A stretch of DNA of 64,000 nucleotides from Clostridia bacterium (GCA_017466805.1 JAFTTN010000063.1:7156-71155); one strand, 5' to 3'; positions 8,581 through 45,003 are shown, numbered from the stretch's first letter. Numbers and translations are program-made. The notes: generated from the letters alone by a model not told the origin.

Positions 8581-8616
8581 TTAACGAAGTTTGCTCCTTG
8601 TATTTATAAGCGACTG

Positions 8617-9549: not shown

Positions 9550-9684
9550 AACGTGCTCCAAAAACAATATTTTAAATTATTAAAATCCAAATTATTATAG
9601 CATAAACCAATAGATTAATCAACAATTTTTCGACAATTTTCCTGCCTTTTACTGCCACCTGTTCATATTTTCTTAATTGTTTTA

Positions 9685-9728
9685 ACAAATAAAACTCCTG
9701 CGGCAATTTAAACGTCGCAGGAGTTTTG
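9685..9728 (-). terminator. intrinsic terminator after the EEP lipoprotein gene
   Basis: AAAACTCCTGCG...CGCAGGAGTTTT hairpin with flanking T/A runs. Confidence 0.7.
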
Positions 9729-9735
9729 TATTAAT

Positions 9736-10545: not shown

Positions 10546-10623
10546 AGCTTTCACCTTTCGAATTTATCGATTTACATTATACTGCAAATATCGCGCATTA
10601 TCAAGATGTGATTTCAATTAATG

Positions 10624-11808: not shown

Positions 11809-11955
11809 CTCCTTTGACATTATAGCATAACGGTGTATAAAGAGCAATACGATATTGTAATTTAAATTTTTTAATGATATTATATAATAAAAGTGAGTGT
11901 TTTTAACAACTCATACGTATAAACACTTGAAACCGAAGTTAACGAGGTTCATAAA

Positions 11956-12501: not shown

Positions 12502-12502
12502 T

Positions 12503-14218
12503 ATGAGATCAAACGAAGAATTCAAGCAGCTTGTTAACGATAAATACGAAAAGTTAAATAAAAACAGACGCAATTTCAGACGCAGGCTTATGACAGTCGG
12601 CTCGAGCTTGATCGTAACGGTTATCGCGCTGAACGTATTTATCGGAAACGGTCTGTATAAAAAAATATTTTCCGGTGCTTCCGATTACGCATCTTCTGAA
12701 AGCGAAATCAGCAGCGCCGAATCACAAATCGATCACGACGGTAACGACTATCTTTCTGAAGAAGGCGGCAATGATACTCTGCAAAGCGAAGCAGAGGATT
12801 TTGAAGAATCCAAAGGTAACGTTTCGGAAGAAATTTTCGCAGAAGAAGGTGTCGACGCTTCAAACGGTCCCGATTTGACCGTAAGTGAAGACGAATACGA
12901 CTCCGATACATCCAAAAACGAAATATTCGACGCGGACGAAGACTTTATCTTTCGCCCCGACGGAATAATGAATATATATTCGACCGTTGATTTGATGCAC
13001 GAGCTTTACGGAGTTATCTACGAAGATCTATGCGGACCCGAAGACGAAGAGAATCTTTCTTTCCCCGAAGTAAGCGAGGGCGAAAGCGGAGCCGAAGAAA
13101 CACCGTTAGAACCCGACGTTGATTTAAGTCAAACACAAAACGGGCTGACAGATTTCAGTTTTTCGATATTTCGCGAATCGTACGAATACGGCAAAAACAA
13201 CTGTGTTTCGCCCGCGTCTGCCTTCTACGTACTTGGTATGGCTGCAAACGGTGCGCACGGCAACACCCTGCAAGAAATGATAGACACTCTTTGCGGTACC
13301 GATATTTACTCCTTGAATGCCTTTATGAAACACTATAAGGAGTTATACACGAACGACCTTTACCAAACGGCGAGCATTAACGGAGCGATGTGGTTTGATA
13401 GTGACGTAAGCATCGATAAGGGCTTTTTGAACACAAACAAAGAGTATTACAAAATGAACGCATACAAAACCGTAATGAACGACGGAACGGCGCTTGAAAG
13501 CATAAACGAGTGGATCAACAGAAAAACCTACGGTTTAATCCCCCGAATGCTTGACAACCTCAATCCCGGCACCGATATCGTTATGGCAAGTACGGTATAT
13601 TTCGAATCAAGCTGGAACAACAAATTCTCTTTATTGGAGGGTACGCAGAATTTCACATCCTCCGACGGCAAGATTAAGCAGGTTGAAATGATGATAGGCA
13701 GTGCCGACAAATATTTAGAAAACGGCCACTGCAAAGGATTTATCAAAGACTACGGCGAAAAGGGCAAGTTTAAATTTATTGCACTTTTACCGAACGAGAA
13801 TATAAGCTTAAAAATGCTGTTAGGTTCGCTTAATTCGCAAGAATACAGAAAGCTATTAAGCAATGCGAGCTATATCGACACCAACGTAACTATGCCTTTG
13901 TTTGAATGCACAGCAAGGCTTGAGCTGACCGATACGCTGAAAAAAATGGGCATTAAAGATGCTTTTGACGCCCAAAATGCTAACTTCTATCGTCTTACAG
14001 ACTCGAATTTATCTTTATCCAACGTATACCAAGACGTTACGATATCCGTTCACGAAAAGGGCACTCTTGCGGCAAGTGCAACAATAATTACCACACCCGG
14101 TGCAACTCCACCTTCCGAGACAAAGGAGTTAATATTCGACAAACCATTCCTATATATGATTATCGACAACGAAACAAAGCTTCCGATGTTTATAGGTACG
14201 GTCGAGGATTTCGAATAA
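12503..14218 (+). CDS. membrane-anchored serpin: short cytoplasmic N-terminus, 1 TM, acidic linker, serpin domain
   Basis: TM helix at roughly aa 30-52, an acidic low-complexity region to about aa 205, then a serpin fold. The hinge/RCL is EKGTLAASATIITTPGA and the C-terminal block is FDKPFLYMI. Confidence 0.85.
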   Translation: MRSNEEFKQLVNDKYEKLNKNRRNFRRRLMTVGSSLIVTVIALNVFIGNGLYKKIFSGASDYASSESEISSAESQIDHDGNDYLSEEGGNDTLQSEAEDFEESKGNVSEEIFAEEGVDASNGPDLTVSEDEYDSDTSKNEIFDADEDFIFRPDGIMNIYSTVDLMHELYGVIYEDLCGPEDEENLSFPEVSEGESGAEETPLEPDVDLSQTQNGLTDFSFSIFRESYEYGKNNCVSPASAFYVLGMAANGAHGNTLQEMIDTLCGTDIYSLNAFMKHYKELYTNDLYQTASINGAMWFDSDVSIDKGFLNTNKEYYKMNAYKTVMNDGTALESINEWINRKTYGLIPRMLDNLNPGTDIVMASTVYFESSWNNKFSLLEGTQNFTSSDGKIKQVEMMIGSADKYLENGHCKGFIKDYGEKGKFKFIALLPNENISLKMLLGSLNSQEYRKLLSNASYIDTNVTMPLFECTARLELTDTLKKMGIKDAFDAQNANFYRLTDSNLSLSNVYQDVTISVHEKGTLAASATIITTPGATPPSETKELIFDKPFLYMIIDNETKLPMFIGTVEDFE

Positions 14219-14267: not shown

Positions 14268-15509
14268 TTATTCACCAAGCATTTCGGCAAGTGCGGTCAA
14301 TATACCGAGTTTGCCGCTTTCGTAAGTAAGACCGCCCTGCATATATACCAGATACGGCTCACGAAGAGGCGCATCGGCAGAAAGCTCGATCGAGCTTCCT
14401 TGAGTAAAAGCACCTGCAGCCATTACGACAGAATCGTTATATCCCGGCATTTCCCAGCCTTCAGGTGTAACGAAGCTGTCAACGGGCGAGCCCTTTTGTA
14501 TTCCTCGGCAGAATTTAAGAACGTTTTCTGCGTTATGAAGTCTGATTGTTTGAATAATGTCACTTCTTCTTTCGTTCGAAGGAGGATAGCATTCAAAACC
14601 TTGACGTTCGAACATCGCAGCCGCGAAATGTGCGGTTTTGATAGCCTGCGCGGTTATATGCGGTGCAAAGAAAAGGCCCTTTATCATAGGCTTTGTCGCA
14701 CCCATAGATGCACCTGCCTCCAATCCGATACCCGGAACTGTAAGACGGTAGGATGCGAGCTCAACCGCACGCTTAGTGCCGACTATATAGCCGCCCGTTT
14801 CGGCAATACCGCCGCCTGCGTTTTTAATAAGCGAGCCGACAAGAAGGTCGCCCTTCGGTTCTTCCTCTTCGGTAAATTCACCATAGCAGTTATCGACGAC
14901 AAGATAAACGCCATCGAATTCGCGCACAAGCGCAAACAGCTCGTTTATTTCTGCAACCGTAAGCGTTCTGCGGTCGCCATAGCCCTTCGAGCGCTGAACG
15001 AACACTACCTTTATGCTTTTATCGCTAATAAGCGCTTCGCGAATTGCGTCCAAATTAAGAGTTTTACCGTCGACAAGCGGAATCTCGCGATATTTTACAC
15101 CGTATTCGGCAAGCGATCCTTCGCCGTTTTTGTCGCTGCCGTTTATACCGATAACGTTATCGAGCGTATCGTAAGGCTTTCCGCTTGCGGCAAGCATAGT
15201 ATCGTTTGGTCTTAAAAGCCCATACAACGCAATAGCAAGCGCGTGGGTACCCGAAATTATTTGAGAACGCGCAAAGCCTGACTCGGCACCGAAAGCTTCG
15301 GCGAACATTTTATCGCAAAGATCGCGTCCGTCGTCATTATATCCGTATCCGCAGGTAGAATTAAAATGACGGTCGGAAAGACGGTTTTCGCGGAACACCG
15401 ACATTACCTTTTGGGTATTCTTAAAAGCAACCGCATCGATTTCGGAAAAAATCGGCGCAAGATCGCGCTCGCATTCTTCGGCGAGCTTCAAAAGTTTTTC
15501 GCTAAACAT
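14268..15509 (-). CDS. YnbB-type PLP-dependent methionine gamma-lyase-family protein (so-called aluminium resistance protein)
   Basis: Family-typical N-terminus MFSEKLL...GYGYNDDGRD. Start moved to the ATG 8 nt after GGAAG. Confidence 0.7.
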   Translation of the reverse strand: MFSEKLLKLAEECERDLAPIFSEIDAVAFKNTQKVMSVFRENRLSDRHFNSTCGYGYNDDGRDLCDKMFAEAFGAESGFARSQIISGTHALAIALYGLLRPNDTMLAASGKPYDTLDNVIGINGSDKNGEGSLAEYGVKYREIPLVDGKTLNLDAIREALISDKSIKVVFVQRSKGYGDRRTLTVAEINELFALVREFDGVYLVVDNCYGEFTEEEEPKGDLLVGSLIKNAGGGIAETGGYIVGTKRAVELASYRLTVPGIGLEAGASMGATKPMIKGLFFAPHITAQAIKTAHFAAAMFERQGFECYPPSNERRSDIIQTIRLHNAENVLKFCRGIQKGSPVDSFVTPEGWEMPGYNDSVVMAAGAFTQGSSIELSADAPLREPYLVYMQGGLTYESGKLGILTALAEMLGE

Positions 15510-15528
15510 ATTTTTACTTCCGTTACAA

Positions 15529-16524
15529 TTATTCTGCGCCGTTTTCGATAAACGCAATAAGAAGATCGCCGCACGCCTTTAAATCGTCGCTATCGATGGT
15601 TTCAACGGGGCTATGAACGTAGCGTGTGGGAAGCGAAATACAACACGCATGCGAGCCTGCACCGGCTATCTGCATTTGCGAGGTATCGGTACCGCCGGCA
15701 AGAAGCACCTCGTATTGATATTTGATGTTGTTCGCTTCAGCCAAATCGGTAAGTCTGTCCACTATCTTTCTTGAGCAGATAACCGAGCTGTCCTTTATTT
15801 TAATAGCCGCACCGTTGCCGAGCTTTGCTGTAAGATGGTTTGGGTTACCGCAAGCAGGCGCAGGCGTAACGTCGAGCGCGATTGAATAATCGGGCATTAC
15901 CGCAAAGGACGAGGGCTTTGCACCGCGGCAGCCTACCTCTTCCTGAGTTGTGAATACGAAATAGGTATCATACGCGGGTACCTTGCAGTTAAGTGCTGCG
16001 TAAGCCGAAATAGCACAGCATACGCGGTCATCAAACGCTTTGGAAGCGTAACGCTTCGAGGAAAGCTTTTTGAACATAGGAGCAAGCGCGCATACGTCGC
16101 CAACCTTAACCTTGCGCTTCGCCTTAGCTCCGCTGTCTGCGCCGATATCGACAAAAAGCTTATTTGCAGTAAGATCGGAAGCTCGTGTACCGTCCTCTAC
16201 AACCAATATGCCCTGCGTTCCATTTTGGAATTTTACGTTATGGTAGCAGGAAGCCAGCGCGTTGATACCGCCGATAGGTGCAACGCGAATCATGCCGTTA
16301 TCTTCTACGTTTACAACCATAAAGCCGATTTCATCCATATGCGAAGCAATCATAAGCTTTTTCGAGGAATCCTTGCCCTTTTTAAGAACGATTACGTTCC
16401 CCATAGCATCGATAGAAATTTCATCGGCTATTCCGGCAAGATCGGTTTTGATTATTTCGGCGAGTTCGGTTTCGTAACCGGAAACTGAGAATGCGTTTTG
16501 ATATTTTTTTACGTGATTAAGCAT
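15529..16524 (-). CDS. M42-family metallo-aminopeptidase (FrvX/TET-like), paralog 3
   Basis: HMDEIGFMV and AFDDRV motifs. 331 aa. Confidence 0.85.
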   Translation of the reverse strand: MLNHVKKYQNAFSVSGYETELAEIIKTDLAGIADEISIDAMGNVIVLKKGKDSSKKLMIASHMDEIGFMVVNVEDNGMIRVAPIGGINALASCYHNVKFQNGTQGILVVEDGTRASDLTANKLFVDIGADSGAKAKRKVKVGDVCALAPMFKKLSSKRYASKAFDDRVCCAISAYAALNCKVPAYDTYFVFTTQEEVGCRGAKPSSFAVMPDYSIALDVTPAPACGNPNHLTAKLGNGAAIKIKDSSVICSRKIVDRLTDLAEANNIKYQYEVLLAGGTDTSQMQIAGAGSHACCISLPTRYVHSPVETIDSDDLKACGDLLIAFIENGAE

Positions 16525-33515: not shown

Positions 33516-33544
33516 TTGACAAATATAAACGTTTTTGGTAAAAT
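33516..33544 (+). promoter_or_regulatory. sigma-A promoter of the HAD gene
   Basis: TTGACA, 17 nt, TAAAAT. It covers the track ORF's ATG at 33535, which argues for the start at 33580. Confidence 0.55.
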
Positions 33545-33579
33545 ATTCACAAACTGTTAATTTGATTATCGGAGTAAAA

Positions 33580-34047
33580 ATGAAGGTAATATTTCTTGAT
33601 ATAGACGGTGTTTTGAATTCGTTTAAATACGACCTCCACCGAGGTGAAGGCGAAGGCAATATAGATATAACGCGCATGCCGCTTTTAAAGCGCATCGTTG
33701 ACAAGACGGGTGCTTTGATAGTATTATCGAGCAGTTGGCGCAAATATTGGGAAAAAGAGGATAATTTTGACCCTATCGGTGCAGAGCTAGACGCGGTTTT
33801 CGGTCGGTTTGGCTTGGAGATATACGACAAAACACCGTTTTTGCAGATAGGAAGCCGCGCACACGAAATAATGAGCTGGCTGGAACAGCACGAGAACGAG
33901 GTTGATGCTTTCGTAGTAATCGACGATGCTTTCGGCGGTTGGGGCGCGATTACGAGCAACGTGGTACGTACCGATGCACGAATCGGTTTTGGCTTGATGG
34001 GTACACACGTTGACAAGGCTATTGAAATTTTAAACCGAGCGAGATAA
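33580..34047 (+). CDS. HAD-superfamily phosphatase-like protein
   Basis: MKVIFLDIDGVLN (DxDG motif I). RBS GGAG. Confidence 0.7.
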   Translation: MKVIFLDIDGVLNSFKYDLHRGEGEGNIDITRMPLLKRIVDKTGALIVLSSSWRKYWEKEDNFDPIGAELDAVFGRFGLEIYDKTPFLQIGSRAHEIMSWLEQHENEVDAFVVIDDAFGGWGAITSNVVRTDARIGFGLMGTHVDKAIEILNRAR

Positions 34048-34075: not shown

Positions 34076-34105
34076 ATCAAAAATCGATTTCTTTTCAACA
34101 AGGGG

Positions 34106-34186
34106 CTACTGCGCCCATTAGGTGTCGGTAGCCCTATGTCAATTTGATACCTCAAAGAAGTATTTAACTTAAAAGTTTATACAACA
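34106..34186. repeat. 81-nt repeat, copy R1
   Basis: 77 of 81 positions identical to 35118-35198. Contains a stem GGGCTACTG/CGGTAGCCC around the loop cgcccattaggtgt. Confidence 0.9.
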
Positions 34187-34255
34187 GAAAGATATATATG
34201 CTTTCTTTACAGTTCGTTATCTTGCGGTTTGTTTTCAAGTGGTGCGTTTTGCGCA

Positions 34256-34975
34256 CTACACTTTGAAAAATTCTATAAATGATCTGATAGCCCAACGAAT
34301 ACCGCGTTTTTTATTTATTGTGTTCAATGTATCCTTCATACGTTCAACAACGATTTCTTCGTTACAAAACTCTGAAGTCATGCTCTTAATATGCTCCGGA
34401 GCTATCCAAATCGGTTTTTGGAGCGCAGCTTCGAGTATTGTCTTTGAGGTTTTGTATACTTTAAATACCGTGCCGTAGCCTCCCGCGCAGAGTTTTTCTC
34501 GAAGTTCGTTTAAAACGAATATAACTTCATCGACAAACAGTATAAGCGTAAAAGAGTCGAGCTTCGCGGCATTTTCTTGTACATATCGAAGCATATCCAA
34601 AAGACCGTTACGGTCTGCTAAACGCACTATAATTTCACCGTAACTGTAAAACTCATGAAATTTGCGAGAAGCATTGTTTTCTTGCAAAAAGCCGTTGCGG
34701 TGTATCTCCTTTAACTCTTGCAACCATTTTTCTTCCAACGCTTTGGGAACTTCATGTTTTTTATAGGTGTCGTATATTTCTTCACGAGCCATGTGGAAAG
34801 CGCTACCATCATACTTCATAAAGATTTCTTTTGCTTCTTTGTATTTGTTTTCGTCGCCCTGCCAAGCGTATGTTTCACGAACGCTTGGTTGTTTTTTATT
34901 AGTGGACAGTAATCTATAAAACCGAAAGCACACAATCAAAAAAATAATTGCCATCAGAACATCATACATCGTCAT
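34256..34975 (-). CDS. hypothetical, island family 3 (N-terminal TM helix plus helical domain)
   Basis: Shares KY.EAKEIFMKY.G and C-terminal ..ILE.AL.KP.. blocks with 36768-37313. RBS AAGGAG. Confidence 0.6.
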   Translation of the reverse strand: MTMYDVLMAIIFLIVCFRFYRLLSTNKKQPSVRETYAWQGDENKYKEAKEIFMKYDGSAFHMAREEIYDTYKKHEVPKALEEKWLQELKEIHRNGFLQENNASRKFHEFYSYGEIIVRLADRNGLLDMLRYVQENAAKLDSFTLILFVDEVIFVLNELREKLCAGGYGTVFKVYKTSKTILEAALQKPIWIAPEHIKSMTSEFCNEEIVVERMKDTLNTINKKRGIRWAIRSFIEFFKV

Positions 34976-35011
34976 TTTTTCTTATGCTCCTTGATGTTTG
35001 TCGTTTGTGAT

Positions 35012-35095
35012 AATGTCTTATATATTTCTCTGCCTTGGCTATGGCTTCGGGGTTTTGGATTATGTAAATGTTTTTTACATCATCAAATATAAATC
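35012..35095 (-). pseudogene. 3'-end remnant of an island family 1 gene
   Basis: Minus-strand translation DDVKNIYIIQNPEAIAKAEKYI matches the conserved tail NILIIQNPEAIAEVEKYIS. It has no start and no N-terminal part. Confidence 0.7.
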
Positions 35096-35117
35096 TAAAT
35101 CCGTCACTCTGTAAATT

Positions 35118-35198
35118 CTACTGCGCCCATTAGGTGTCAGTAGCCCTCTGACAAATTGATACCTCAAAGAAGTATTTAACTTAAAAGTTTATACAACA
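35118..35198. repeat. 81-nt repeat, copy R2
   Basis: See R1. The stem here is CTACTG/CAGTAG; the G-to-A change converts a G-U pair into an A-U pair. Confidence 0.9.
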
Positions 35199-35234
35199 AG
35201 AAGGAGATGTTTTCCTCTTATAAAAAACACATTC

Positions 35235-36035
35235 TTATGAAATAGATTGGAGCTTATCAAACAGGTTTTCCAAGCGTTTTTTTACACTTTCCTCGGATGC
35301 GACACTTTCCCATAGACGTTTATTCAAGTACGCCTCCGACATTTGTATCGGCCGATTAAGCTCATTTTCAAGAATCGGCAACAGCAAGTCATTTATCTTT
35401 GCGGTCAACTCGTCGTTTCCGATTTTTTCAGCAGTATCGTAAAGCTTTTCTGCGCGAAGCAATACAGAAATCGAGTCGAGCTCCTTTGCATTATCCGCAA
35501 AATACGACAACATAAATTCCAATGCAGTAGAATCGTTTAGTATAACAGCTAAATTGCCGAGATTTTGAAAGTTAAAAGTTTTGGTGGCTTCATCAACCTC
35601 GCCGGGAGCGGCCGACAGCACATTTATTGCTTCTTGTTTTAACTCCTCATTAAAAGCTCGCGATGCTGCTTCCCATTTTGGCGCAAAATGCGCTTCATAT
35701 TTAGCCATTAGATCTTTACAATAATGCAAACTTGTAATGTTATCATAGTTTTCTATTAAATAATCGATCAAACCAAAGATGTCAACGTTTTCGATCGGCG
35801 CCATATTGTTTTCGGCTGTTAGTATTTGTGTTAGTTTAAAGATTGCCCCATCACCAAGATATCGAATTGTAATATCGGGCGATTCATCATATCGACCTTT
35901 TGACAGCGAGAACATATAAATTGTATTAGAGTAAGCTATTATGTTTTTTCTCGATGCAACGCACTTATAACCTATTTTTTTGAAACAACGCATTTTTCTT
36001 TTGATTTGCCTTTTTTCCTTGAATGTGAATTCCAT
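35235..36035 (-). CDS. hypothetical; C-terminal domain related to island family 3
   Basis: The C-terminal half aligns with family 3 (..AKELDSISVLL...LLPILENELNRP..). Start at the second ATG, 6 nt after AGGAGG. Confidence 0.55.
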   Translation of the reverse strand: MEFTFKEKRQIKRKMRCFKKIGYKCVASRKNIIAYSNTIYMFSLSKGRYDESPDITIRYLGDGAIFKLTQILTAENNMAPIENVDIFGLIDYLIENYDNITSLHYCKDLMAKYEAHFAPKWEAASRAFNEELKQEAINVLSAAPGEVDEATKTFNFQNLGNLAVILNDSTALEFMLSYFADNAKELDSISVLLRAEKLYDTAEKIGNDELTAKINDLLLPILENELNRPIQMSEAYLNKRLWESVASEESVKKRLENLFDKLQSIS

Positions 36036-36052
36036 ACTCATCCTCCTATGAA

Positions 36053-36239
36053 TTAATCATTCTTATGCTGAAATATTAAAGTGTTCGCGCCTGATGTGTC
36101 GCTTACTATCGTGCAGTTACCCCAAGCATCGTAGTTGTATCTCGCTACAATATTGCCGTTCGAGTCGAATACGTGTACTACGTCGCCTTGCGCGTTCTTG
36201 CCGTAGTATACGTTTTTTCTTTTTTGATTTGTATTTTTT
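36053..36239 (-). pseudogene. start-less RHS/YD-repeat stub
   Basis: My translation gives ..KNVYYGKNAQGDVVHVFDSNGNIVARYNYDAWGNCTIVSDTSGANTLIFQHKND*. There is no start codon, and a stop lies directly upstream. Confidence 0.7.
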
Positions 36240-36260
36240 CATAATCACACGTCGGAATAT

Positions 36261-36704
36261 TCAAGAAATCTTTTCGACAACCTCACAAATTTTTGTGTTT
36301 GGGTAGTATCTGATAAGATAAGTTTCGCCAACCTCGACACCCTGTAAGTGCAGTATTATGTATTCATCGGTATCGATAACATATAGCTTGGGGTCGTTGT
36401 ACGAAATTTGACCGTTACCGTCTAAATCACGTTCTATGCGCGTATATTCTATAACTTTGCATTCTTCTTCGATATAAGTATCGTTTGTTACGTATGACAA
36501 ATCTTTATAACATTCAACGAAATGCTTGGCGGTCAAAAATCCAAATAACAGAAGAGCGCAAACGGAAACAACTAAAAGAACCGAACCGTATTTTCTTTGT
36601 AAAAATATTCGTTTTGAAAATACAATTGATACTATTAGCAGTATGCAAATTAATATTAGCCCTATTAACGATAAATAAAATAGTGTCCAAAATTGCTTTT
36701 CCAT
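36261..36704 (-). CDS. hypothetical 2-TM protein, island family 2
   Basis: MEKQFW... with the conserved tail NDTYIE...TDEYIILH..G..VGETYLIRYYPNTKICEV. Paralogous to 40821-41288 and 41285-41731. Confidence 0.6.
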   Translation of the reverse strand: MEKQFWTLFYLSLIGLILICILLIVSIVFSKRIFLQRKYGSVLLVVSVCALLLFGFLTAKHFVECYKDLSYVTNDTYIEEECKVIEYTRIERDLDGNGQISYNDPKLYVIDTDEYIILHLQGVEVGETYLIRYYPNTKICEVVEKIS

Positions 36705-36767
36705 GTTTTTTCCTTTCATATTTTGTTATATGCAGATCTAAATACTGATACTATTATGCGACATTAT

Positions 36768-37313
36768 TTATGCATTTTTTAGTGTGTTTAGTGCCTCTTG
36801 CAAACGTTCATTTATGTTTTCTTCGGTAAAAGCCGAACGATCGATTAGTAAGAACTCTTCGGACAGCAATAAAGGTTTACTAAGTGCATCTTCAAGAATG
36901 GGAATAACAATTTCCTTTGTCTTTGCCAAAAAGGTTGCATCTTCAATAAACTCTTTAATGCGAATTGCTGTTCTTATGAGGTCTTCCGCCCATAGAACCA
37001 ATGGAATTGTTGTCATTTGTTTTGCACGTTGGGAGGTATTAATAAGAAGATCAATAAGACCGTCGATATCTTTTAATCTGTTTAGAACTTCAATTGCATC
37101 CCAGAATTTTTTAATATATTTCTTTTCATTCGTTTCACTATCGAGTCTTGATATACATATTTCTTTAAGCTCTGCCAACCATTTTCTTTCGATTCGGCGC
37201 GGCACACCGTAAGATTTATAGAGATCATATTCTCCGTCGAGGTCCATACCATAATGGTCGCCTTGATATTTCATAAATATTTCTTTTGCTTTTTCGTATT
37301 TCTTTGTAAACAT
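36768..37313 (-). CDS. hypothetical, island family 3
   Basis: KYEKAKEIFMKYQG... Paralogous to 34256-34975. Confidence 0.6.
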   Translation of the reverse strand: MFTKKYEKAKEIFMKYQGDHYGMDLDGEYDLYKSYGVPRRIERKWLAELKEICISRLDSETNEKKYIKKFWDAIEVLNRLKDIDGLIDLLINTSQRAKQMTTIPLVLWAEDLIRTAIRIKEFIEDATFLAKTKEIVIPILEDALSKPLLLSEEFLLIDRSAFTEENINERLQEALNTLKNA

Positions 37314-37358
37314 ATGAGAAAAATCCTTTCTATTTTATAGCTCTCCGAACTCATTTGT

Positions 37359-38189
37359 TTACTTACTTTCGTCGAAAACAGGTTCTACAATTACATTTTT
37401 TAAAAGCTTATTTTCATTAAGCAGTCTGTACAGCTTTTGAGAAATAATGTAAAGCGGCGCGGCGGAATTGCGTCCAAACATAGCTTCAGTTATATAAATG
37501 TCTTTGTTAAGTTCAAATTTAGAAAAATCGAGATGCAACTGCACCGTATTGCCTAGTGAATACCACTTTTGACCGCAAACTTGACAGGAAAATTCTTTTT
37601 CACCATATCCATGTTCTACACATTCCCTGCCTATAACAGTATCCGACGTGAGTTGATAAAAATTTTCGCTGTATTTCCCGCCGCGAACAATTACGTTCTT
37701 AAAAACGGCACCCTTTATATCGCTGGATTGAATCAAATCATAAACAGCACGAGAGGTAAGGAGGAACATCCGCTCGACGTACGCTTCTGCCCAAAAATGA
37801 GTTTTGCTTTTTGTGCTCGGCAAATCCCAAACCTTCAAATTGCCAACTTGCTCGTAAAGAAAATGTCTATTTCCCTGTACACCTTCACAAACTTCAACAA
37901 GAGCGGAATCTTCATAGTCGAATTTTTGATATTTAGGACGAATCGTTAATAACTTGGCTCTTTCTAATTCTTCTTTGTCAAATACACAAGTTACGGTCAA
38001 CATAAGTTGGTTACCCAAAGAAAACGGTTGATTAGATATTTCTTTTATAATTGCGCCTTCTCTTTCAGTGGGACCGACTATGTTAATAATTACAAAATCA
38101 TCCTTTATTTTGTATTTTATTTCATTCTTATCAAGCTGTTCGAGCAAACCCGGTTTTATACTACCTGCTGCATAATATCGGTATTTCAT
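37359..38189 (-). CDS. hypothetical; possibly Imm11/DUF1629-like immunity protein with a CxxC pair
   Basis: 276 aa. The resemblance (..FSCQVCGQKW.. and the tail ITEAMFG...PLYIISQKLYRLL) is from memory only. Confidence 0.35.
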   Translation of the reverse strand: MKYRYYAAGSIKPGLLEQLDKNEIKYKIKDDFVIINIVGPTEREGAIIKEISNQPFSLGNQLMLTVTCVFDKEELERAKLLTIRPKYQKFDYEDSALVEVCEGVQGNRHFLYEQVGNLKVWDLPSTKSKTHFWAEAYVERMFLLTSRAVYDLIQSSDIKGAVFKNVIVRGGKYSENFYQLTSDTVIGRECVEHGYGEKEFSCQVCGQKWYSLGNTVQLHLDFSKFELNKDIYITEAMFGRNSAAPLYIISQKLYRLLNENKLLKNVIVEPVFDESK

Positions 38190-38212
38190 ATTATCTCCTT
38201 AGTTAAATATCT

Positions 38213-38352
38213 TTCACATACTTTTTTATTGATAACAGTGCAACTGCTAACAATTTAGGGTTATCTTTGTATACTTCAAAAGCATTTTTTGCGAGCGTTA
38301 AATAATCCTGCGTGCCCTGTCCATATGACAAAAGCCTCTTTGTTGTTATAGT
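38213..38352 (-). pseudogene. start-less orphan tip following junction hairpin A
   Basis: The open frame TITTKRLLSYGQGTQDYLTLAKNAFEVYKDNPKLLAVALLSIKKYVKDI* starts right after a stop and shares the TITT junction with 42349-42570. Confidence 0.4.
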
Positions 38353-38412
38353 TCATAAGGCGAGGTGTTAGTACTTCGCCTTATTTACTGTTACACTTAG
38401 TTTGACAATTCA
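38338..38412. repeat. junction repeat A (hairpin 38357-38382)
   Basis: About 75 nt, nearly identical to 42541-42614. Contains the hairpin AAGGCGAGGT-gttagt-ACTTCGCCTT. Confidence 0.85.
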
Positions 38413-39412
38413 TTGTTGTTTCACTCATTTCCTGAACATTATGGTTTTTCAATGCACACAAAAAGCTCGACGAAAAGACCGATGATTGTGGTATTCTAAT
38501 AATCTTTCCGTTATTCATTTCGAGCACTATTTTATTGTTTTTTATACAATAGCCGCTGCAGTCTTTATAGTAAACGGTACGCCAAGAGCAAAGCATAGAA
38601 CGGTATTTGAAGTATTTTTCGTTTACAGACCACTCGAGCTTCCAAACGAATAAAAACACCAACCAAGCCAAGCTTATTAAAACAGCCGACGCCGAAAAAC
38701 ACGAAAGCAGAGCGTTTTTGCTTAAGCACGATTGAATCAGCAAAGCAAACGCACACGCAAACAGCAGAAGCGCAAAGAACATATACCTTTTCGGTTGAAA
38801 AAGAAACAGCTTTTTTTCGCGGCTTGTGCCTACAGCATTTCTTCCGTCATCGCCTTCGTTTGTATTTCGGGGCTTGTTCAACAGATTTGCCGCAATATTT
38901 GCGATTATCGGATTTTCGTTTTCGGACAGTTGCTTTAAATATCCGAAGGCTTCATCGGTGCCGATATTATAAAGCGCATACATACACTTTCGGTTAAATT
39001 CGCGGTAGTCGCTTTGATATTGCAGGTAATCGAAATCTACGGTAGATGCCTCGAACAAAGGCTTGGCGGTATTCGGATTTTTGCTTGCTGTTAATATCGA
39101 TGCAATGTCCTCGTGAGAAATGTGCCAATCCTGAATCAAGAGCGGTGCTAACCGTTCGTCGAATTGATTTGCGGTATCAAAATTAAGCATCAACAGCAGG
39201 AGCAATTCAAGCTCTTCTGCGTTTTTGTTACAAATTGCTTCATCGAGCATTGCTTTTATTTTTTCAAGATCGGGCAAATCGCTTCCAAAGAATTTTATGC
39301 AGAATTCTTTGTCTTTTTGTTTTTTTAATTCATTCGGTTCTCCGCATAATGCATATTGCGATTTGTCTTTTATTAGTCTGTTTTCGAGCAGTTTGAATTG
39401 TATCTCGTTCAT
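38381..39412 (-). CDS. hypothetical fusion: HEAT-like helical repeats, 2 TM helices, C-terminal beta-rich domain
   Basis: The segment ALYNIGTDEAFGYLKQLSENENPIIANIAANLL is HEAT-like. Two TM helices lie at roughly aa 215-265. Start at the ATG (MNEIQF). Confidence 0.55.
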   Translation of the reverse strand: MNEIQFKLLENRLIKDKSQYALCGEPNELKKQKDKEFCIKFFGSDLPDLEKIKAMLDEAICNKNAEELELLLLLMLNFDTANQFDERLAPLLIQDWHISHEDIASILTASKNPNTAKPLFEASTVDFDYLQYQSDYREFNRKCMYALYNIGTDEAFGYLKQLSENENPIIANIAANLLNKPRNTNEGDDGRNAVGTSREKKLFLFQPKRYMFFALLLFACAFALLIQSCLSKNALLSCFSASAVLISLAWLVFLFVWKLEWSVNEKYFKYRSMLCSWRTVYYKDCSGYCIKNNKIVLEMNNGKIIRIPQSSVFSSSFLCALKNHNVQEMSETTMNCQTKCNSK

Positions 39413-39533
39413 TATTAGCTTACCTTTCAAATCGGCGTATAAGACACGATACCACTATTTAATATATCTAAAGCTTTTCCAAAACCAAGTCCTATATTAA
39501 TCAGCAGACCTTCTCTTTTGTGATATTTTTCTG

Positions 39534-40034
39534 TCAAGAGATATATTTCTCGACTTCGGCTATGGCTTCGGGATTTTGGATTATTAAAATGTTTTTATCG
39601 TTCCAATAATCTCTGTATTCCATTCCTTCGTAAAGCTCCATATCTCGATAGAGAACGAGGCATTCGCTTGTTCGATCAAATCCACTTGCGTTCACATTGG
39701 CATATATAAAAGTAATCTTATGAAATACGTGCGAATATTCGGCATATCTATATTCTCTTATTATTTTGCCCAAACCGCTGTATAGCATTATGCCATCTTC
39801 AGTAATGCAAATCTTTCTGCGCAGCACAATTACAAAATACAGAACAGAAATAGTCAGCAAAAATAACATAAAACCCATTATTATAGCTATTAGTATAAGG
39901 ACATCAGAAAAATAAGCGGTTTCATATGTAAAAAACATTCCAATCATACTCAACAATATAATTAATGAAGTACTAATGAGCGTGCTCATACGAAAGGCTT
40001 TGATTTGTTTCTCATCATGTAATAATAATTTCAA
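39534..40034 (-). CDS. hypothetical 2-TM protein, island family 1
   Basis: Conserved tail ECLVLYRDMELYEGMEYRDYWNDKNILIIQNPEAIAEVEKYIS. TTG start inferred from paralog alignment. Confidence 0.55.
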   Translation of the reverse strand: MKLLLHDEKQIKAFRMSTLISTSLIILLSMIGMFFTYETAYFSDVLILIAIIMGFMLFLLTISVLYFVIVLRRKICITEDGIMLYSGLGKIIREYRYAEYSHVFHKITFIYANVNASGFDRTSECLVLYRDMELYEGMEYRDYWNDKNILIIQNPEAIAEVEKYIS

Positions 40035-40110
40035 TTTTCAAATACCCCCCTACCAATATCGCGTTCAACATAAAGTTCGTTTCGAGCGGTTCTTTGACTA
40101 TGAATAAGAT

Positions 40111-40165
40111 TCTTTGTTGTTATAGTTCATAAGGCGTGGTGTTAGTACTTCGCCTTATTTAAAAT
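40111..40165. repeat. junction repeat B (hairpin 40131-40156)
   Basis: ctttgttgttatagttcat AAGGCGTGGT-gttagt-ACTTCGCCTT attt. Confidence 0.85.
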
Positions 40166-40191
40166 TGCTTCTCTTTTGTGATATTTTTCTG

Positions 40192-40686
40192 TCAAGAGAT
40201 ATATTTCTCAACCTCGGCTATGGCTTCAGGGTTTTGGATTATTAAAATGTTTTTATCGTTCCAATAATCTCTGTATTCCATTCCTTCGTAAAGTTCCATA
40301 TTGCGATATAAAACGAGGCACTCTTTGTGAAAGGACTCAATTCTGTTGTTGCTTCCGCCCGCGTAGTCCAGCTTTATAATATGTCTTTTTGCATTATATT
40401 TATTATACTTATAACAATGAAATGCTTTTTCTTTGGCCGTGTATACCGTAACACCTTGCTCGTCGACAGTGATTTTTCTCCCGTATCTTTTATATCCGCG
40501 AATGGCCGTTACAAAAAGAAGAACAGACGGTAAAAACAGCAAACAAGAAAACGCAAACATATATCTGTAAAAAAAACCGCAAACAAACAAGCTTATGCTT
40601 GCTATCAAAAACAGAAGCGAAAAAATCAACGGACCCTTCACATATCCAAAAATTTTGTCCTTTTCAAATAGAAATCTTAAAGTCAT
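40192..40686 (-). CDS. hypothetical 2-TM protein, island family 1
   Basis: Same tail as 39534-40034 (one substitution). RBS AAGGAG. Confidence 0.6.
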   Translation of the reverse strand: MTLRFLFEKDKIFGYVKGPLIFSLLFLIASISLFVCGFFYRYMFAFSCLLFLPSVLLFVTAIRGYKRYGRKITVDEQGVTVYTAKEKAFHCYKYNKYNAKRHIIKLDYAGGSNNRIESFHKECLVLYRNMELYEGMEYRDYWNDKNILIIQNPEAIAEVEKYIS

Positions 40687-40694
40687 ATAAATAA

Positions 40695-40775
40695 TCTCCT
40701 TTTTTCATAATTGCCGTTCGGAGTCGAATATCATAACGCGCAATATGAACTTATCGCCGATGTGTTTTCTTGAAT
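40695..40775 (-). pseudogene. decayed RHS stub
   Basis: Nucleotide similarity to the ...GDVIHIFDSNGNY... segment of 42349-42570, but with a 1-nt insertion and internal stops. Confidence 0.45.
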
Positions 40776-40820
40776 ATTAAATTAATAGTTAATAGTCCAA
40801 AGCTCTATATAGCGAAACGT

Positions 40821-41288
40821 CTAATCAACAACGTCCGCGACTTCGCAAAGACGCGTGTGCGGATAATATACGACTCTGTACGTTTTTCCTATTTCCAAAC
40901 CTTTTTGATGCAAAACCAAACACTCGTCAGTTTCCGTAATATAAAATTTTACTTGATCGTTTAGCAGCAAATCTTCCAAATGTCCAAAATCCTGTTTATG
41001 ATCATATCTACAAGCTTCTGCCACAACCTCAATATAATCATCGTTAATAACTCTGGGGAGATCCAAAAAACAAAGTATTAGTTTTTCCGAAGCAAAAACA
41101 CTTAAACAGAGTATAACGAAACCAATAAAAAACGTTTCGAATTTCCCAAAGGAACTGACGCTTGATTTATAACGTTTGATTTCGTGTAGCAAGAAAAGAA
41201 ACAGCAAAACCGCAAGAATTAAAACGCCTATTGTAAGCAAAAGATGTCGCCAATACGTATCGGTTAAAACATTAGATAAATACTTCAT
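40821..41288 (-). CDS. hypothetical 2-TM protein, island family 2
   Basis: Tail NDDYIE...TDECLVLHQKGLEIGKTYRVVYYPHTRLCEV. ATGA overlap with the upstream paralog. Confidence 0.6.
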   Translation of the reverse strand: MKYLSNVLTDTYWRHLLLTIGVLILAVLLFLFLLHEIKRYKSSVSSFGKFETFFIGFVILCLSVFASEKLILCFLDLPRVINDDYIEVVAEACRYDHKQDFGHLEDLLLNDQVKFYITETDECLVLHQKGLEIGKTYRVVYYPHTRLCEVADVVD

Positions 41289-41731
41289 ATTATTTCCTCG
41301 ACAATTTCACAGATTCTGGAATTGGGATAGAATCTGATCAAATAAGTTTTTCCTACCTTTACGTTTTTTACGTCCAAGATAATATACTCGTCCGTTTCTG
41401 CAATATAGAATAGAGGATCTTCGACTACATAGTCTTCTGTAGATTCCCAATTTGCACGCTTGACATAAGTATATCTTATCACTTCCGCTTCGACTTCTAT
41501 ATAAGTATCGTTTCTTACATATTTATAGTCTTTCCAACAATTTATATTTGTCTGACCGAAATACACAAGCACCAAAAATACAGGAATAATCGCAAGCTTG
41601 AATAATATATTTGCGTTATTTTCGTTATCAACGATACGCTTGCGATTTTTTACACACAAAACAATCCCTATAAAAACCATTAGCAAGAGTATTGATGAAG
41701 ATATTAGAATTAACCAAAAACCTTTTTCCAC
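41285..41731 (-). CDS. hypothetical 2-TM protein, island family 2
   Basis: MEKGFW... with the tail TDEYIILDVKNVKVGKTYLIRFYPNSRICEI. GTG start after GAGGTG. Confidence 0.6.
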   Translation of the reverse strand: MEKGFWLILISSSILLLMVFIGIVLCVKNRKRIVDNENNANILFKLAIIPVFLVLVYFGQTNINCWKDYKYVRNDTYIEVEAEVIRYTYVKRANWESTEDYVVEDPLFYIAETDEYIILDVKNVKVGKTYLIRFYPNSRICEIVEEII

Positions 41732-41821
41732 TTTTAGTCACCTCAGCGTTACAATACATGTTTTGCACATGCTCTATAAAAACATTTGCCTAAGTCGATT
41801 TTCAGCGGCTCACTGAAAATA

Positions 41822-41850
41822 GTGGTGTTAGCACTTCGCCTTATTTAAAA
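41822..41850. repeat. junction repeat C (truncated; only one hairpin arm retained)
   Basis: gtggtgttagcacttcgccttattt matches the right half of repeats A, B and D. Confidence 0.7.
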
Positions 41851-41876
41851 TTGCTTCTTTTTTGTGATATTTTCTG

Positions 41877-42371
41877 TCAAGAGATATATTTCTCAACCTC
41901 GGCTATGGCTTCGGGATTTTGGATAAAAAGAATGTTCTTATCGTTCCAATAACTCCGATATTCCATACCCTCGTAAAGTTCCATATCTCGATACAAAACA
42001 AGGCACTCTTTGAGATAATGCTCTTCATCAAATATACGCCTCTGTGGCTCTAGCATTGCAATGATGAATTTTGTGCTTTTATACTCGCTAAATAAGTATT
42101 TGTGATAAAGTTTGCCGCCACTCGTATATAGGGTTATACCATCGTTTTCTATTGATATTTTTCTGGCGTGTCTCTTCCACCATACAATTGCTATATGCAA
42201 CGACAGCATCCATGATATGAAGAATACTACCGAAACGAACATGACTTTTTTCCAATAAAAGCCAAGTATGAGAAAAAACACGCTCATGATAAACATAAAA
42301 ATGCACCCGTATATCTGAATGGCGACATAATCTTTTCTCGTTTTTTCATCAAATAGAAATATTAATGGCAT
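41877..42371 (-). CDS. hypothetical 2-TM protein, island family 1
   Basis: Tail ECLVLYRDMELYEGMEYRSYWNDKNILFIQNPEAIAEVEKYIS. Start at the ATG (MPLIF) 9 nt after AAGGAG. Confidence 0.6.
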   Translation of the reverse strand: MPLIFLFDEKTRKDYVAIQIYGCIFMFIMSVFFLILGFYWKKVMFVSVVFFISWMLSLHIAIVWWKRHARKISIENDGITLYTSGGKLYHKYLFSEYKSTKFIIAMLEPQRRIFDEEHYLKECLVLYRDMELYEGMEYRSYWNDKNILFIQNPEAIAEVEKYIS

Positions 42372-42570
42372 ATAATTTATCTCCTTTTTCATAATTGCCG
42401 TTTGAGTCGAATATGTGAATTACATCGCCTTGGGCGTTCTTGCCGTAGTAATAGTAAGTGCCAAGATTCGAAATATTCCCAACATCCGCTCGGGCAAACC
42501 CTATTATACTGCCGGATGCATCGTATAAATAGGTCAGCTTCTGTGTGGTTATAGTTGATAAGGCGAAGTG
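42349..42570 (-). pseudogene. start-less RHS/YD-repeat stub overlapping the next gene's start
   Basis: My translation gives HFALSTITTQKLTYLYDASGSIIGFARADVGNISNLGTYYYYGKNAQGDVIHIFDSNGNYEKGDKLYAINISI*. A stop lies directly upstream and there is no ATG. Confidence 0.7.
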
Positions 42571-42614
42571 TTAGTACTTCGCCTTATTTACTGTTGCACT
42601 TAGTTTGACAATTC
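42541..42614. repeat. junction repeat D (hairpin 42560-42585)
   Basis: Nearly identical to repeat A. It sits 4 nt after the mutS2 stop on the minus strand. Confidence 0.85.
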
Positions 42615-42618
42615 ATCT

Positions 42619-45003
42619 TTACTTTTTGATTTTGAGTTCGAGAACGGTAACGCCCAAATCGCCCTCGCCGTATCTGCCGGAGCGGAAGCTGCGTATACGC
42701 GCTTTATCCTGGCGGAAGAACTGCCAAAGTGCTGCGCGAAGCGCACCCGTGCCTTTACCGTGGATAACGTAGACGGTTTCGTGACCCGCAAGGATAGCAT
42801 CTTCTAAATAGCGGTCGATTATAAACCAAGCGTCATCACCGGTATTGCCGCGAACGTCGATTTCGTTTTTGACGGCGGAAACGCTATGTGTATATTGCGC
42901 CCTGCCTTTTTCTTTTTTCTGCTTTTCGACGGCTGCCGCATTGGCAAGGAGGCGGATATTTTTGATATTCGTCTTGGTTTCCAGCCTGCCCATTGCGCAG
43001 AAAACGGTATCGCCCGAAATGCTTTTTACAACCGCTTCTTTGCCTATATCGGCAAGAAGAACCTTATCGCCTATTTGAAGCGGGCGCGGAAGAGTATAGT
43101 TATCCTCCTCGACTTCGAATTCCTCGATATCGGAGATGGCGGCAGAGGTATCCTTTAGATTTTGGCGGACTGCCTTGCGTGCTTCCTCGATACGAGCGAG
43201 CTCGAGGCGTTTTGCATCAGCTTTTTTGAGCTCGTTTAGCTCTTCGAACACCTGATTGCTTGTTTTTTTAGCGGCATCGAGTATACGCTGTGCCTGTGCA
43301 CGAGCTCGGTCGAGCTCGGCTTCGGCGCGTTCTTGCATTTCCTTTGCCTGCTTTTCGGCTTCGGCACGTATCTTTAATGCTTCTGCACGGGCGCGTTCGG
43401 ATTCCGAGCGTTCTTTACGAAGATCCTGCTCGGTTTCCTCCAAGCGAACGATGACGTCCTCGAAGCGAATATTATCCTCGGCAAGAAGCTCCTTTGCCCT
43501 TGCGATAACGCTTTCGTCCATACCCAATCGAAGCGAGATTTCGAAAGCGTTACTTCTGCCGGGTATACCGGTTATAAGGCGATACGTCGGCTTTAGAGTT
43601 GCAAGGTCGAATTCGCAGGAGGCATTAAGCACGCCTTCGGTATCGAGCGCGTATATTTTAATTTCCGAATAGTGTGTCGTTGCGGCTACTATTGCACCCG
43701 AGGCACGAACGCGCTCCAATATTGCGATAGCGAGAGACGCACCTTCGGTTGGGTCGGTACCCGCACCGAGCTCATCGAACAGCACGAGCGTACCTTTACC
43801 GCATTCCTTTAAAATCGAAACAACGTTAACCATATGCGAAGAGAAGGTAGAAAGCGATTGCTCGATGCTTTGCTCATCGCCGATATCGGCAAGAACGCCG
43901 TTGAAGGTGGGAAGAGTGCTTCCGTCGTCTGCGGGAATATACAGACCGCTTTGAGCCATTAACGCAAGCAAGCCGAGTGTTTTTAGCGTTACGGTTTTAC
44001 CGCCGGTATTAGGGCCGGTAATTATAAGTGCGTTATCCCTTTCGCCGAATTCGACCGAAATCGGAACTACCTTGCTTTTGGGTATAAGCGGATGGCGTGC
44101 ACGGACAAGGCGGATAGAGCTTGCGTTCGTTTTTGGACGTATGCCCGAAATATCCGAGGAATACGAGGCGCGCGCAAATATTACGTCGAGGTCGGTTATG
44201 ACCTTGAAATCGACACGAATAATATTTGCGATACCGGCAACCTTTACCGAAAGCTCGGAAAGGATTTTTTCGATTTCTTCGGTTTCCCTGCCCTTTAGCT
44301 CGCGCAGCTTATTGTTCGCTTCGATAACCGCCATCGGCTCGATAAAAAGGGTTTGTCCCGAAGCCGAGGAATCGTGAACCAAGCCCTTGATTTCGTTTTT
44401 ATGCTCGGAGCGCACGGGAATAACGTATCTGCCCGAGCGAATAGTAACGACAGCATCGCGAAGATATTTTGAATTTTCACCGGTGGTAAGGTTCGAAAGA
44501 ATTGTGCGAACGCTATCCTCGGCACGACGGATATCGCGGCGGATACGGTAAAGCTCGGGCGAGGCATCGTCGGCTATAGTATCTTCGCCGATTATTTTCA
44601 TATCGATTTCCTCGGCAAGAGCGCGGGATTCGGTAAGCGACGAGAAATACGGATAAAGCGCGGGAATTTCCTTGCCCTCGGGATATTTTTTCACCGAGCC
44701 GACCGCGCGCAGCATTGAAGCGATATTTATAAGCTCTATCGGTGTGAGCGTTGCGCCCTTTTCGGCACGGTCTGCGGAATCGACAACGCCTTCGGGCGCG
44801 GAAAAGCCGGGTTTCCCCTTCATAACCAGCAAATCGAGTGCTTGCTCGGTTTCATCAAGCAGGCGCGAAATAATGACAGAATCGGTTTCGGGAATTGTTT
44901 CGGCAAGCTTTTTTCTTGCAGCCGCAGTGGTAGCAAAGCTTGAAGCGTAGCCGATTATTTTATCGTATTCAAGTATGGTTTTTGCTTTAGTAAAGCCTTT
45001 CAT
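42619..45003 (-). CDS. mutS2: endonuclease MutS2 (with Smr domain)
   Basis: GPNTGGKT Walker A and a C-terminal Smr domain (VIHGKGTGALR). 794 aa. Confidence 0.9.
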   Translation of the reverse strand: MKGFTKAKTILEYDKIIGYASSFATTAAARKKLAETIPETDSVIISRLLDETEQALDLLVMKGKPGFSAPEGVVDSADRAEKGATLTPIELINIASMLRAVGSVKKYPEGKEIPALYPYFSSLTESRALAEEIDMKIIGEDTIADDASPELYRIRRDIRRAEDSVRTILSNLTTGENSKYLRDAVVTIRSGRYVIPVRSEHKNEIKGLVHDSSASGQTLFIEPMAVIEANNKLRELKGRETEEIEKILSELSVKVAGIANIIRVDFKVITDLDVIFARASYSSDISGIRPKTNASSIRLVRARHPLIPKSKVVPISVEFGERDNALIITGPNTGGKTVTLKTLGLLALMAQSGLYIPADDGSTLPTFNGVLADIGDEQSIEQSLSTFSSHMVNVVSILKECGKGTLVLFDELGAGTDPTEGASLAIAILERVRASGAIVAATTHYSEIKIYALDTEGVLNASCEFDLATLKPTYRLITGIPGRSNAFEISLRLGMDESVIARAKELLAEDNIRFEDVIVRLEETEQDLRKERSESERARAEALKIRAEAEKQAKEMQERAEAELDRARAQAQRILDAAKKTSNQVFEELNELKKADAKRLELARIEEARKAVRQNLKDTSAAISDIEEFEVEEDNYTLPRPLQIGDKVLLADIGKEAVVKSISGDTVFCAMGRLETKTNIKNIRLLANAAAVEKQKKEKGRAQYTHSVSAVKNEIDVRGNTGDDAWFIIDRYLEDAILAGHETVYVIHGKGTGALRAALWQFFRQDKARIRSFRSGRYGEGDLGVTVLELKIKK

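Follow-up and report, generated by a model that had tools for sequence, protein, structure and literature searches.

In Bacillus subtilis, WapA, an RHS-type contact-dependent toxin, and its immunity protein WapI (PF24716) provide a Gram-positive example of a toxin-immunity pair. Clusters of acquired interbacterial defence (AID) genes, and recombinase-associated AID clusters, were reportedly described in Bacteroidales by Ross et al. in 2019, and to our knowledge most descriptions of islands of orphan immunity genes to date concern Bacteroidales and Proteobacteria. Orphan immunity within AID is mentioned elsewhere (PMC10470768), and a type VI secretion system (T6SS) immunity islet is known in Salmonella Typhi (PMC7400221). 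Arrays of Rhs orphan toxin-immunity modules lie downstream of rhs genes in Enterobacteria, for example in Salmonella Typhimurium (PMC3967940), and tandem arrays of type VII secretion system (T7SS) immunity paralogues (esaG, tipC, and tsaI) evolve by homologous recombination (PMC9484751). The locus analysed here lies in a 64-kb stretch of an uncultured gut Clostridia genome (GCA_017466805.1, JAFTTN010000063.1:7156-71155; hereafter the window, to which coordinates refer unless another locus is named), where an island of small genes, numbered g1 to g11 from the HAD side, occupies the space between mutS2 and a convergent HAD gene. This island is likely to be a degenerate RHS orphan toxin-immunity array in which the toxin tips have been deleted and the immunity genes have stayed intact and under selection, that is, an orphan immunity store. 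Orphan-immunity islands are an already known type of locus; the protein families of this one are new to Pfam, NCBIfam, and PADLOC.

Positions 34256-42392 are filled by 11 intact minus-strand open reading frames (ORFs) of 148-349 residues, most of which are preceded by a Shine-Dalgarno-like sequence. The original prediction, made from the window itself, had described an array of twelve intact-looking genes; the array is present with 11, and the twelfth can only be a 42-residue ORF at 38203-38331. All-against-all BLASTP recovers, in their predicted places, the three recurrent paralogue families, which together with two singletons (g5 and g6) make up the 11 genes. Profile searches of the island proteins, which had been proposed as a check, returned one curated match in Pfam and NCBIfam, DUF6560 at the C-terminus of g6; across Pfam, NCBIfam, PHROGs, and PADLOC, none of them matches a family of toxins, secretion proteins, integrases, or transposases. 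The longest ORF of the window has 858 residues and is not RHS, and the place upstream of the array is taken by mutS2 instead of a full-length rhs gene. Profile scans, tblastn, and ORF sizes thus agree with the predicted absence of a full-length RHS or other toxin, secretion gene, integrase, and transposase. With family 3 taken as an immunity family from its genomic context, the island is a cluster of homologs of immunity genes that lacks both cognate toxins and a secretion system. The prediction of an immunity reservoir with its toxin parts erased is supported in its core by five lines of evidence, namely RHS stubs, the genomic context of family 3, toxin relics, the loss of every toxin domain from the window, and purifying selection on island genes that are younger than the flanks.

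Both RHS core fragments and toxin relics occur in the array, whose genes are under purifying selection, horizontally exchanged, and variable between strains. At the sequence level, the decisive comparison for the origin of the stubs is with a sister strain (L032, GCA_045546795.1), whose flanks are 99% identical to those of the window and whose gene content differs. Directly after mutS2, L032 has a single uninterrupted stub of 101 residues, and the two start-less stubs of the window, A and B, are its halves, overlapping in YYGKNAQGDV.H.FDSNGN. With 26.3 bits (cut-off 22; E = 9.7e-6), stub B qualifies as RHS_repeat in Pfam, and stub A alone has no Pfam match. Both stubs align with the core end of genuine RHS proteins such as that of L003, which reads ...YYYGKNAQGDVIAIYDASG...YEYDAWGN...NPIRYRGYYYD...RYYDAEARRF...; the stub-type core of the present lineage reads ...TITTQKLTYLYDASG...YYYGKNAQGDV.... 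Database proteins related to the stubs in a protein search are short RHS fragments, several of which carry PF05593 or PF25023. The suggestion that the YD-like fragments derive from RHS genes is therefore borne out by the Pfam match of stub B and by the correspondence of both stubs to the L032 stub. In L003 the canonical layout is retained, with a true RHS C-terminal end followed by a toxin tip and a small immunity gene, and then by an orphan stub, a tip, and an immunity gene. In the island, stub A joins the ribosome-binding site of g11 at ...FDSNGN, and stub B breaks off 15 nt before the start of g2 without reaching the NPxRYxGYYYD motif, so the toxin-coding parts must have been cut out.

What remains of a toxin is a relic of 17 residues (LQSDGFRFIFDDVKNIY) upstream of g1, which corresponds to the last piece of the relic found in L032 and is fused to a fragment of the family 1 tail. 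In L032 the relic of the toxin domain linked to family 3 is 66 residues long, ends 20 nt before the g4 ortholog, and matches metagenomic C-terminal domains with E values of 1e-8 to 1e-13. Apart from the 17-residue relic, a tblastn search of the entire window with the RHS core end and with the cognate toxin domain gave a best E value of 0.55, and no better match was found there for a toxin domain after the core-end motif (NPxRYxGYYYD...RYYDPxxGRF), one of the two defining features of an active RHS orphan array that the island lacks, the second being an upstream rhs gene. Two other features of such arrays can be compared directly: RHS/YD core fragments head modules of the island in the form of stubs A and B, and an immunity gene immediately after a toxin tip is found for family 3 only (in 10 loci and after the L032 relic). 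The likeness to the Enterobacterial arrays thus lies in the short core fragments that head modules, with immunity genes next, and in recombination at shared core sequence, which reshuffles the array. The island differs in having mutS2 and no main rhs gene upstream, in its host, which belongs to the uncultured Eubacteriales (Clostridia), and in the deletion of its toxin tips, which leaves nothing to re-activate. This last difference bears on the alternative that the island is a silent array as in Salmonella, whose stored tip would be revived by recombination with the main rhs gene. The core fragments offer possible homology for such recombination, and L003 and L012 do keep complete orphan tips; however, the window holds no tip beyond the 17-residue relic, and both stubs, which stop before NPxRYxGYYYD...RYYDP, pass directly into the regions that precede immunity genes. 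This alternative, which deserves hardly any credence, is largely refuted by the absence of any toxin-domain ORF.

The link between island genes and RHS toxins is most direct for family 3. Its members g1, g2, and g4 share 25-34% identity (BLASTP, E = 1e-7 to 3e-29), and an exhaustive HMMER search yields 192 representative clusters at 50% identity, mostly stand-alone proteins of ~180 residues, for which a consistent Pfam match was not found; the typical N-terminal motif is AKEIFxKYxGSxFxMxREGxYxxYK. A metagenome scan with a 12-sequence subset of the family gave 15 loci, or 19 in total with other look-ups. In 10 of these 19 loci (L008-L013, L016, L017, L024, and L032; 8 of them independent), the gene for the family 3 homolog begins 20-152 nt past the end of a conserved C-terminal domain that has ~115 residues and the pattern ...VxLGKY...SY...ATYFQLDxWD...NMWxINxQFLxQQ...GKxFxxSHNPxxATGYFxQEV.... 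Wherever enough sequence is present, its carriers are RHS proteins: those of L012 and L024, in which it is C-terminal, score above the Pfam RHS_repeat threshold (4e-18 and 1e-16, respectively). The carrier in L010 has a YD-repeat-like N-terminus and no Pfam match on the 330 C-terminal residues scanned. The domain itself matches nothing in Pfam, NCBIfam, or PDB sequences and is a candidate new toxin domain. Loci with the pair span a GC content of 0.33-0.59, and the pair is therefore taxonomically widespread. By genomic context, family 3 is a putative immunity family, the partner of a specific unannotated RHS C-terminal domain. The original prediction had proposed families 1-3 as unassigned immunity families whose homologs should neighbour toxin domains in other genomes; this holds for family 3 through the 10 loci above, and for families 1 and 2 the assignment is by association only. 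The new and widely distributed putative toxin-immunity pair is the main yield of the analysis, and through it at least 192 clusters of "hypothetical" proteins gain a lead to their function.

The predicted structure of family 3 is confident and all-alpha, with a predicted local distance difference test (pLDDT) score of 95. The only PDB structures that Foldseek finds for this model are 14-3-3 proteins and designed helical repeats (best E = 0.027, TM-score at most 0.49), which give no functional lead, and the family profile matches only designed helical-repeat proteins among PDB sequences. Two loci with family 3 homologs are informative in other respects. In L012 an AHH nuclease tip paired with an Imm11 gene forms an additional orphan module of textbook type. 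In Alicyclobacillus sp. SO9 (L030), whose genome is complete, an island that starts with a tyrosine integrase and an HTH_17 gene holds a family 3 homolog and a WapI gene and ends with a HAD_SAK_2 gene (15367-15810 of that locus). The WapA/WapI system is similar in that a Gram-positive RHS/YD-repeat toxin, its C-terminus polymorphic, is followed by a small immunity gene, and in that a WapI gene co-occurs with a family 3 homolog in Alicyclobacillus; it differs in that no island protein matches WapI and that the window has no WapA-like full-length gene.

Family 1 (g7, g8, and g11; 43-52% identity, E = 1e-35 to 6e-46) combines two transmembrane (TM) helices with an invariant tail, and was found, as predicted, in three copies and one remnant, the tail at 35020-35075. 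The family is a mosaic when paralogues are compared: in the two-TM head the nonsynonymous rate (dN) is ~0.7 and the synonymous rate (dS) is saturated, whereas in the last 42 codons dN is 0.02-0.055 at dS of 0.4-1.0 (dN/dS ~0.05). The near-zero dN of the tail despite such dS values indicates purifying selection at the protein level and not gene conversion alone. Family 1 has 9 database matches and is present in 1 of 185,579 species representatives. Its ties to RHS are positional: stub A directly precedes g11, and an 81-nt repeat (D3) with a stub follows family 1 genes in L001 and L033. Neither family 1 nor family 2 occurs next to an intact toxin, so a role in immunity is assigned to them from their position and from the stubs with which they co-occur. 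A kinship of family 1 with DUF6560 or the C-terminus of g6 was considered and rejected (hhalign probability 4.8%).

Family 2 (g3, g9, and g10) shares 36-40% identity (E = 3e-17 to 6e-31) and has 4 database matches; like family 1, it is almost restricted to this lineage. In PADLOC, a model of SLATT-type two-TM effectors weakly matches its member g3 (21.5 bits, E = 3.8e-5), a match that the paralogues g9 and g10 lack and that is probably driven by TM-helix composition. This match, the hypervariable low-GC character of the locus, and the many two-TM proteins are what could be said for an anti-phage defence or abortive-infection island of small membrane effectors. Such an island is highly improbable, given that PADLOC is otherwise empty, that sensor or enzyme partner genes are missing from the island, that RHS stubs and toxin relics are embedded in it, and that family 3 is tied to RHS toxins. 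A phage origin was likewise rejected: there are no meaningful PHROGs matches, and families 1-3 are absent from 2.9 million viral contigs.

The singletons had been labelled in the original prediction, and neither label survived. For g5, described as possibly Imm11-like, no profile match to Imm11 (PF07791) appears up to E = 10, and BLASTP against the true Imm11 of L012 gives E = 2.4; homologs of g5 were not found in plasmid or phage collections, and its single-sequence AlphaFold2 model is unusable (pLDDT 32). For g6, described as a HEAT/TM fusion, no HEAT match was obtained at the N-terminus, and residues 217-333 lie above the gathering threshold of DUF6560 (PF20197; 29.9 against 27.8 bits, E = 7.5e-7). 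Since homologs outside such islands are almost absent, families 1 and 2, g5, and g6, which account for 8 of the 11 genes, can be called immunity genes only by association.

Comparison with orthologs in other genomes indicates that the genes are maintained, with dN/dS of 0.18-0.29 for g8, g2, and g1. These values weigh against the notion of a graveyard, in which the ORFs would be non-functional, decaying leftovers of an rhs locus since lost. Decay would fit the several fragments without a start, the fused relics, and the dN/dS of ~0.8-0.9 for g7, but the 11 ORFs are intact and mostly equipped with ribosome-binding sites, g8, g2, and g1 are constrained across species, the family 1 tail is nearly invariant at the protein level, and the same genes are retained at two loci and in several species, so a graveyard is very unlikely. 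The dN/dS of 0.78 for g5 is based on very few differences (dN 0.019, dS 0.024). From these comparisons the island genes appear functional, under purifying selection, and horizontally exchanged.

Several observations nevertheless weigh against reading the island as a toxin-deleted array of immunity genes. The dN/dS of g7 is 0.79-0.89; about seven independent family 3 loci lack an upstream toxin, and may be orphans as well; family 1 (9 matches) and family 2 (4 matches) never occur beside an intact toxin; and g5 and g6 have no toxin-linked homolog. Finally, a full-length RHS gene of this lineage was not found: the search for full-length rhs genes carrying the stub repeat, which had been suggested as a check, produced only short RHS fragments, all of them stubs in the protein search.

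Comparison of the mutS2-HAD junction between strains, likewise proposed beforehand, shows that gene content at this site ranges from 1 gene in L034 (a family 3 gene, with a family 1 remnant) through 4 in L001 (a Eubacteriales metagenome-assembled genome, SGB_6515; three family 1 genes and one family 3 gene) and ~6 in L032 to 11 in the window and in metagenome contigs identical to it. A second locus in related genomes, between a GH3 gene and a GtrA gene, contains a g5 ortholog (95% protein identity), family 1 genes, and DUF6560 genes. This locus (L002 2237-7309 and L031 10001-12709) is hypervariable, and in L002 it includes a frameshifted RHS fragment. Within the same genome pairs, dS amounts to 0.13-0.28 in island genes and to 0.66-1.07 in mutS2 and thyA, a three- to six-fold difference with which the DNA identities of island and core genes agree. 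The island cassettes are therefore younger than their host genomes, pointing to horizontal exchange.

The island begins at the mutS2 stop codon, as predicted, since homology to L001 stops at 42618. Its GC content of 0.360 is the lowest among the blocks of the window and below that of mutS2 (0.504), HAD (0.442), thyA (0.453), and the window as a whole (0.430), confirming the predicted AT-richness relative to both flanks. In L001 a 76-nt direct repeat of the mutS2 3' end brackets the island (~9040-9113 and 12431-12506 of that locus, homologous to window 42612-42687) and resembles an attachment site, as from site-specific integration. These features raise the question of whether the island is the cargo remnant of an integrative element that inserted at the mutS2 3' end and later lost its integrase, an origin that would be compatible with an immunity function. 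The bracketing repeat of L001, the low GC content, dS below that of the flanks, and the analogous Alicyclobacillus island that opens with an integrase and an HTH_17 gene all speak for it. However, a distal copy of the mutS2 end was not found in the window, genes for an integrase, an excisionase, or transfer are absent from it, PHROGs matches and relatives in viral contigs are likewise lacking, and recombination between internal repeats explains part of the changes in strain content; an integrative origin is thus somewhat unlikely, if still worth serious consideration.

The internal repeats are of three kinds. The 81-nt repeat D3 has three copies and a partial fourth, and its pattern gives 4 matches from the 3 copies (copy 1 on both strands) against 0 expected by chance. 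Its recurrence as a unit of g6 3' end, hairpin, and stub start implies that one ancestral junction was duplicated. The 56-nt repeat D2 is a family 1 tail present at 39541-39596 and 35020-35075. In variants L027 and L028, g6 to g2 are missing altogether and g8 for the most part, with one breakpoint inside D2, so at least one gain or loss broke within a repeat, namely the family 1 tail. The third kind, an 86-nt direct repeat with copies 93% identical at 34106-34191 and 35118-35203, downstream of g1 and g2, contains a GGGCTAC...GTAGCCC stem; Rfam gave no match for it, nor was it found in L001. For the 81-nt and 86-nt repeats, roles as structured RNA or as integron-like attC sites were rejected, as Rfam matches are at noise; the hairpin copies, as read from their sequences, carry uncompensated mismatches. 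Promoter and terminator counts are at chance level. In these dynamics the island resembles the T7SS immunity arrays, which are also strings of non-identical immunity paralogues in Firmicutes, have conserved gene-end blocks that serve as recombination substrates for gene loss and gain, and include a membrane protein, the product of tsaI. It differs from them in that Pfam and NCBIfam show no EsaG/DUF600, TipC, or TsaI homology, in that no T7SS or LXG gene lies nearby, and in that the conserved block of family 1 is an invariant tail at the protein level, not a mere DNA repeat.

Taken together, an orphan array probably became an immunity-only island through toxin deletion, stub splitting, and recombination between repeats, with deletions removing the toxin-encoding tips and leaving the immunity genes in place. 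Each product would then bind or block a toxin from neighbouring bacteria and so protect the cell; the two-TM families 1 and 2 and g6 may act at the membrane, and in family 1 the hypervariable head may set specificity, with the invariant 42-residue tail having a shared role. The likeness to Bacteroidales AID lies in toxin-less clusters of immunity genes that are horizontally acquired, variable between strains, and presumed to protect against the toxins of neighbours. AID genes, in contrast, counter T6SS effectors, the island genes derive from RHS modules, and all protein families are different; unlike recombinase-associated AID, the island has no integrase or transposase match, although the Alicyclobacillus island has one. 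The Salmonella Typhi islet is likewise a small chromosomal set of orphan immunity genes with toxin remnants, but involves another secretion system, other families, and another phylum. By analogy, the island would work like AID and the Proteobacterial immunity islets, probably descends from an RHS orphan array of the Salmonella type, and resembles T7SS arrays in its dynamics. A more far-reaching proposal, which we advance only tentatively, is that gut and rumen Clostridia have recombinase-free hotspots (the mutS2 3' end and the GH3-GtrA site) at which immunity-only cassettes are swapped between species, family 1 being a modular membrane scaffold and family 3 acting against a new RHS toxin fold. 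If true, these hotspots would be a Firmicute counterpart of Bacteroidales AID built on unnamed families. RHS contact-dependent antagonism and hoarded orphan immunity genes are indicated as shaping the genomes of uncultured Clostridia.

Table 1. Positions of island features, flanking genes, and related domain copies (window coordinates unless a locus is named; aa, amino acids).
Feature	Position	Strand	Remarks
HAD_SAK_2, convergent downstream flank	33535-34047	+	Pfam 2.1e-25; found in 4 of 4 locus variants
g1, family 3 with N-terminal TM helix	34256-34975	-	L034 ortholog, 91% DNA identity, dN/dS 0.20
Family 1 tail relic (repeat D2), fused to toxin relic	35020-35075	-	Recombination breakpoint in strain variants
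Toxin-domain relic, 17 aa	35064-35114	-	tblastn with L032 relic: 76% over 17 aa, E = 7e-6
g2, C-terminal domain of family 3 behind an unlike N-terminus of 100 aa	35235-36041	-	L001 ortholog, 94.4% DNA identity, dN/dS 0.29
RHS stub B	36056-36238	-	Start-less; second half of ancestral stub; 90% over 48 aa to L032 stub
g3, family 2	36261-36719	-	L032 protein 100% identical
g4, family 3, minimal 181-aa all-alpha putative immunity domain	36768-37313	-	98% identical L032 ortholog follows toxin relic
g5, 276-aa singleton	37359-38189	-	95% identical protein in second island locus L031
Start-less 49-aa fragment	38206-38352	-	Begins with RHS "TITTK" junction; no Pfam match
D3 copy 3	38333-38413	-	Overlaps g6 stop
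g6, helical N-terminal domain, two TM helices, DUF6560 C-terminal domain	38381-39430	-	
g7, family 1	39534-40034	-	dN/dS 0.79-0.89 against orthologs
D3 copy 2	40107-40187	-	
g8, family 1	40192-40686	-	L001 ortholog, 91.9% DNA identity, dN/dS 0.18
g9, family 2	40821-41288	-	4-nt overlap with g10
g10, family 2, two TM helices and beta-rich C-terminal domain	41285-41731	-	
g11, family 1	41877-42392	-	Likely true start 42371, giving 164 aa
RHS stub A	42394-42570	-	Start-less; first half of ancestral 101-aa stub; 94% over 54 aa to L032 stub
D3 copy 1	42536-42616	-	30-nt copy of g6 3' end, 10-bp hairpin, RHS stub start (TITT...)
mutS2, conserved upstream flank	42619-45003	-	Pfam MutS_V 2.8e-31, Smr 3.3e-19
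~115-aa domain copies	L010 1853-2185; L012 5308-5658; L016 157-498; L013 157-528; L024 3249-3440		Family 3 gene always next

Among the flanking genes, HAD_SAK_2 is more diverged between genomes than thyA (72.7% against 89% DNA identity), and in L001 an ADP-ribosylglycohydrolase gene (12566-13831 of that locus) adjoins it; HAD_SAK_2 might itself be an immunity gene of an enzymatic "repair" type. Elsewhere in the window, a milder low-GC block (0.39-0.41) at 2000-12000 contains ordinary lipid-metabolism genes and no signs of an island; the genes there encode FakA-like, DegV, acyltransferase, and AMP-binding/PP-binding proteins and an MFS transporter. At 11956-14218, an ORF of 181 residues is followed by a bacterial serpin of 571 residues with an N-terminal extension of 214 residues. 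The same pair occurs in L034, where the counterpart of the first ORF has 186 residues and ECF sigma-factor Pfam domains, and the pair may represent an anti-sigma/serpin fusion.

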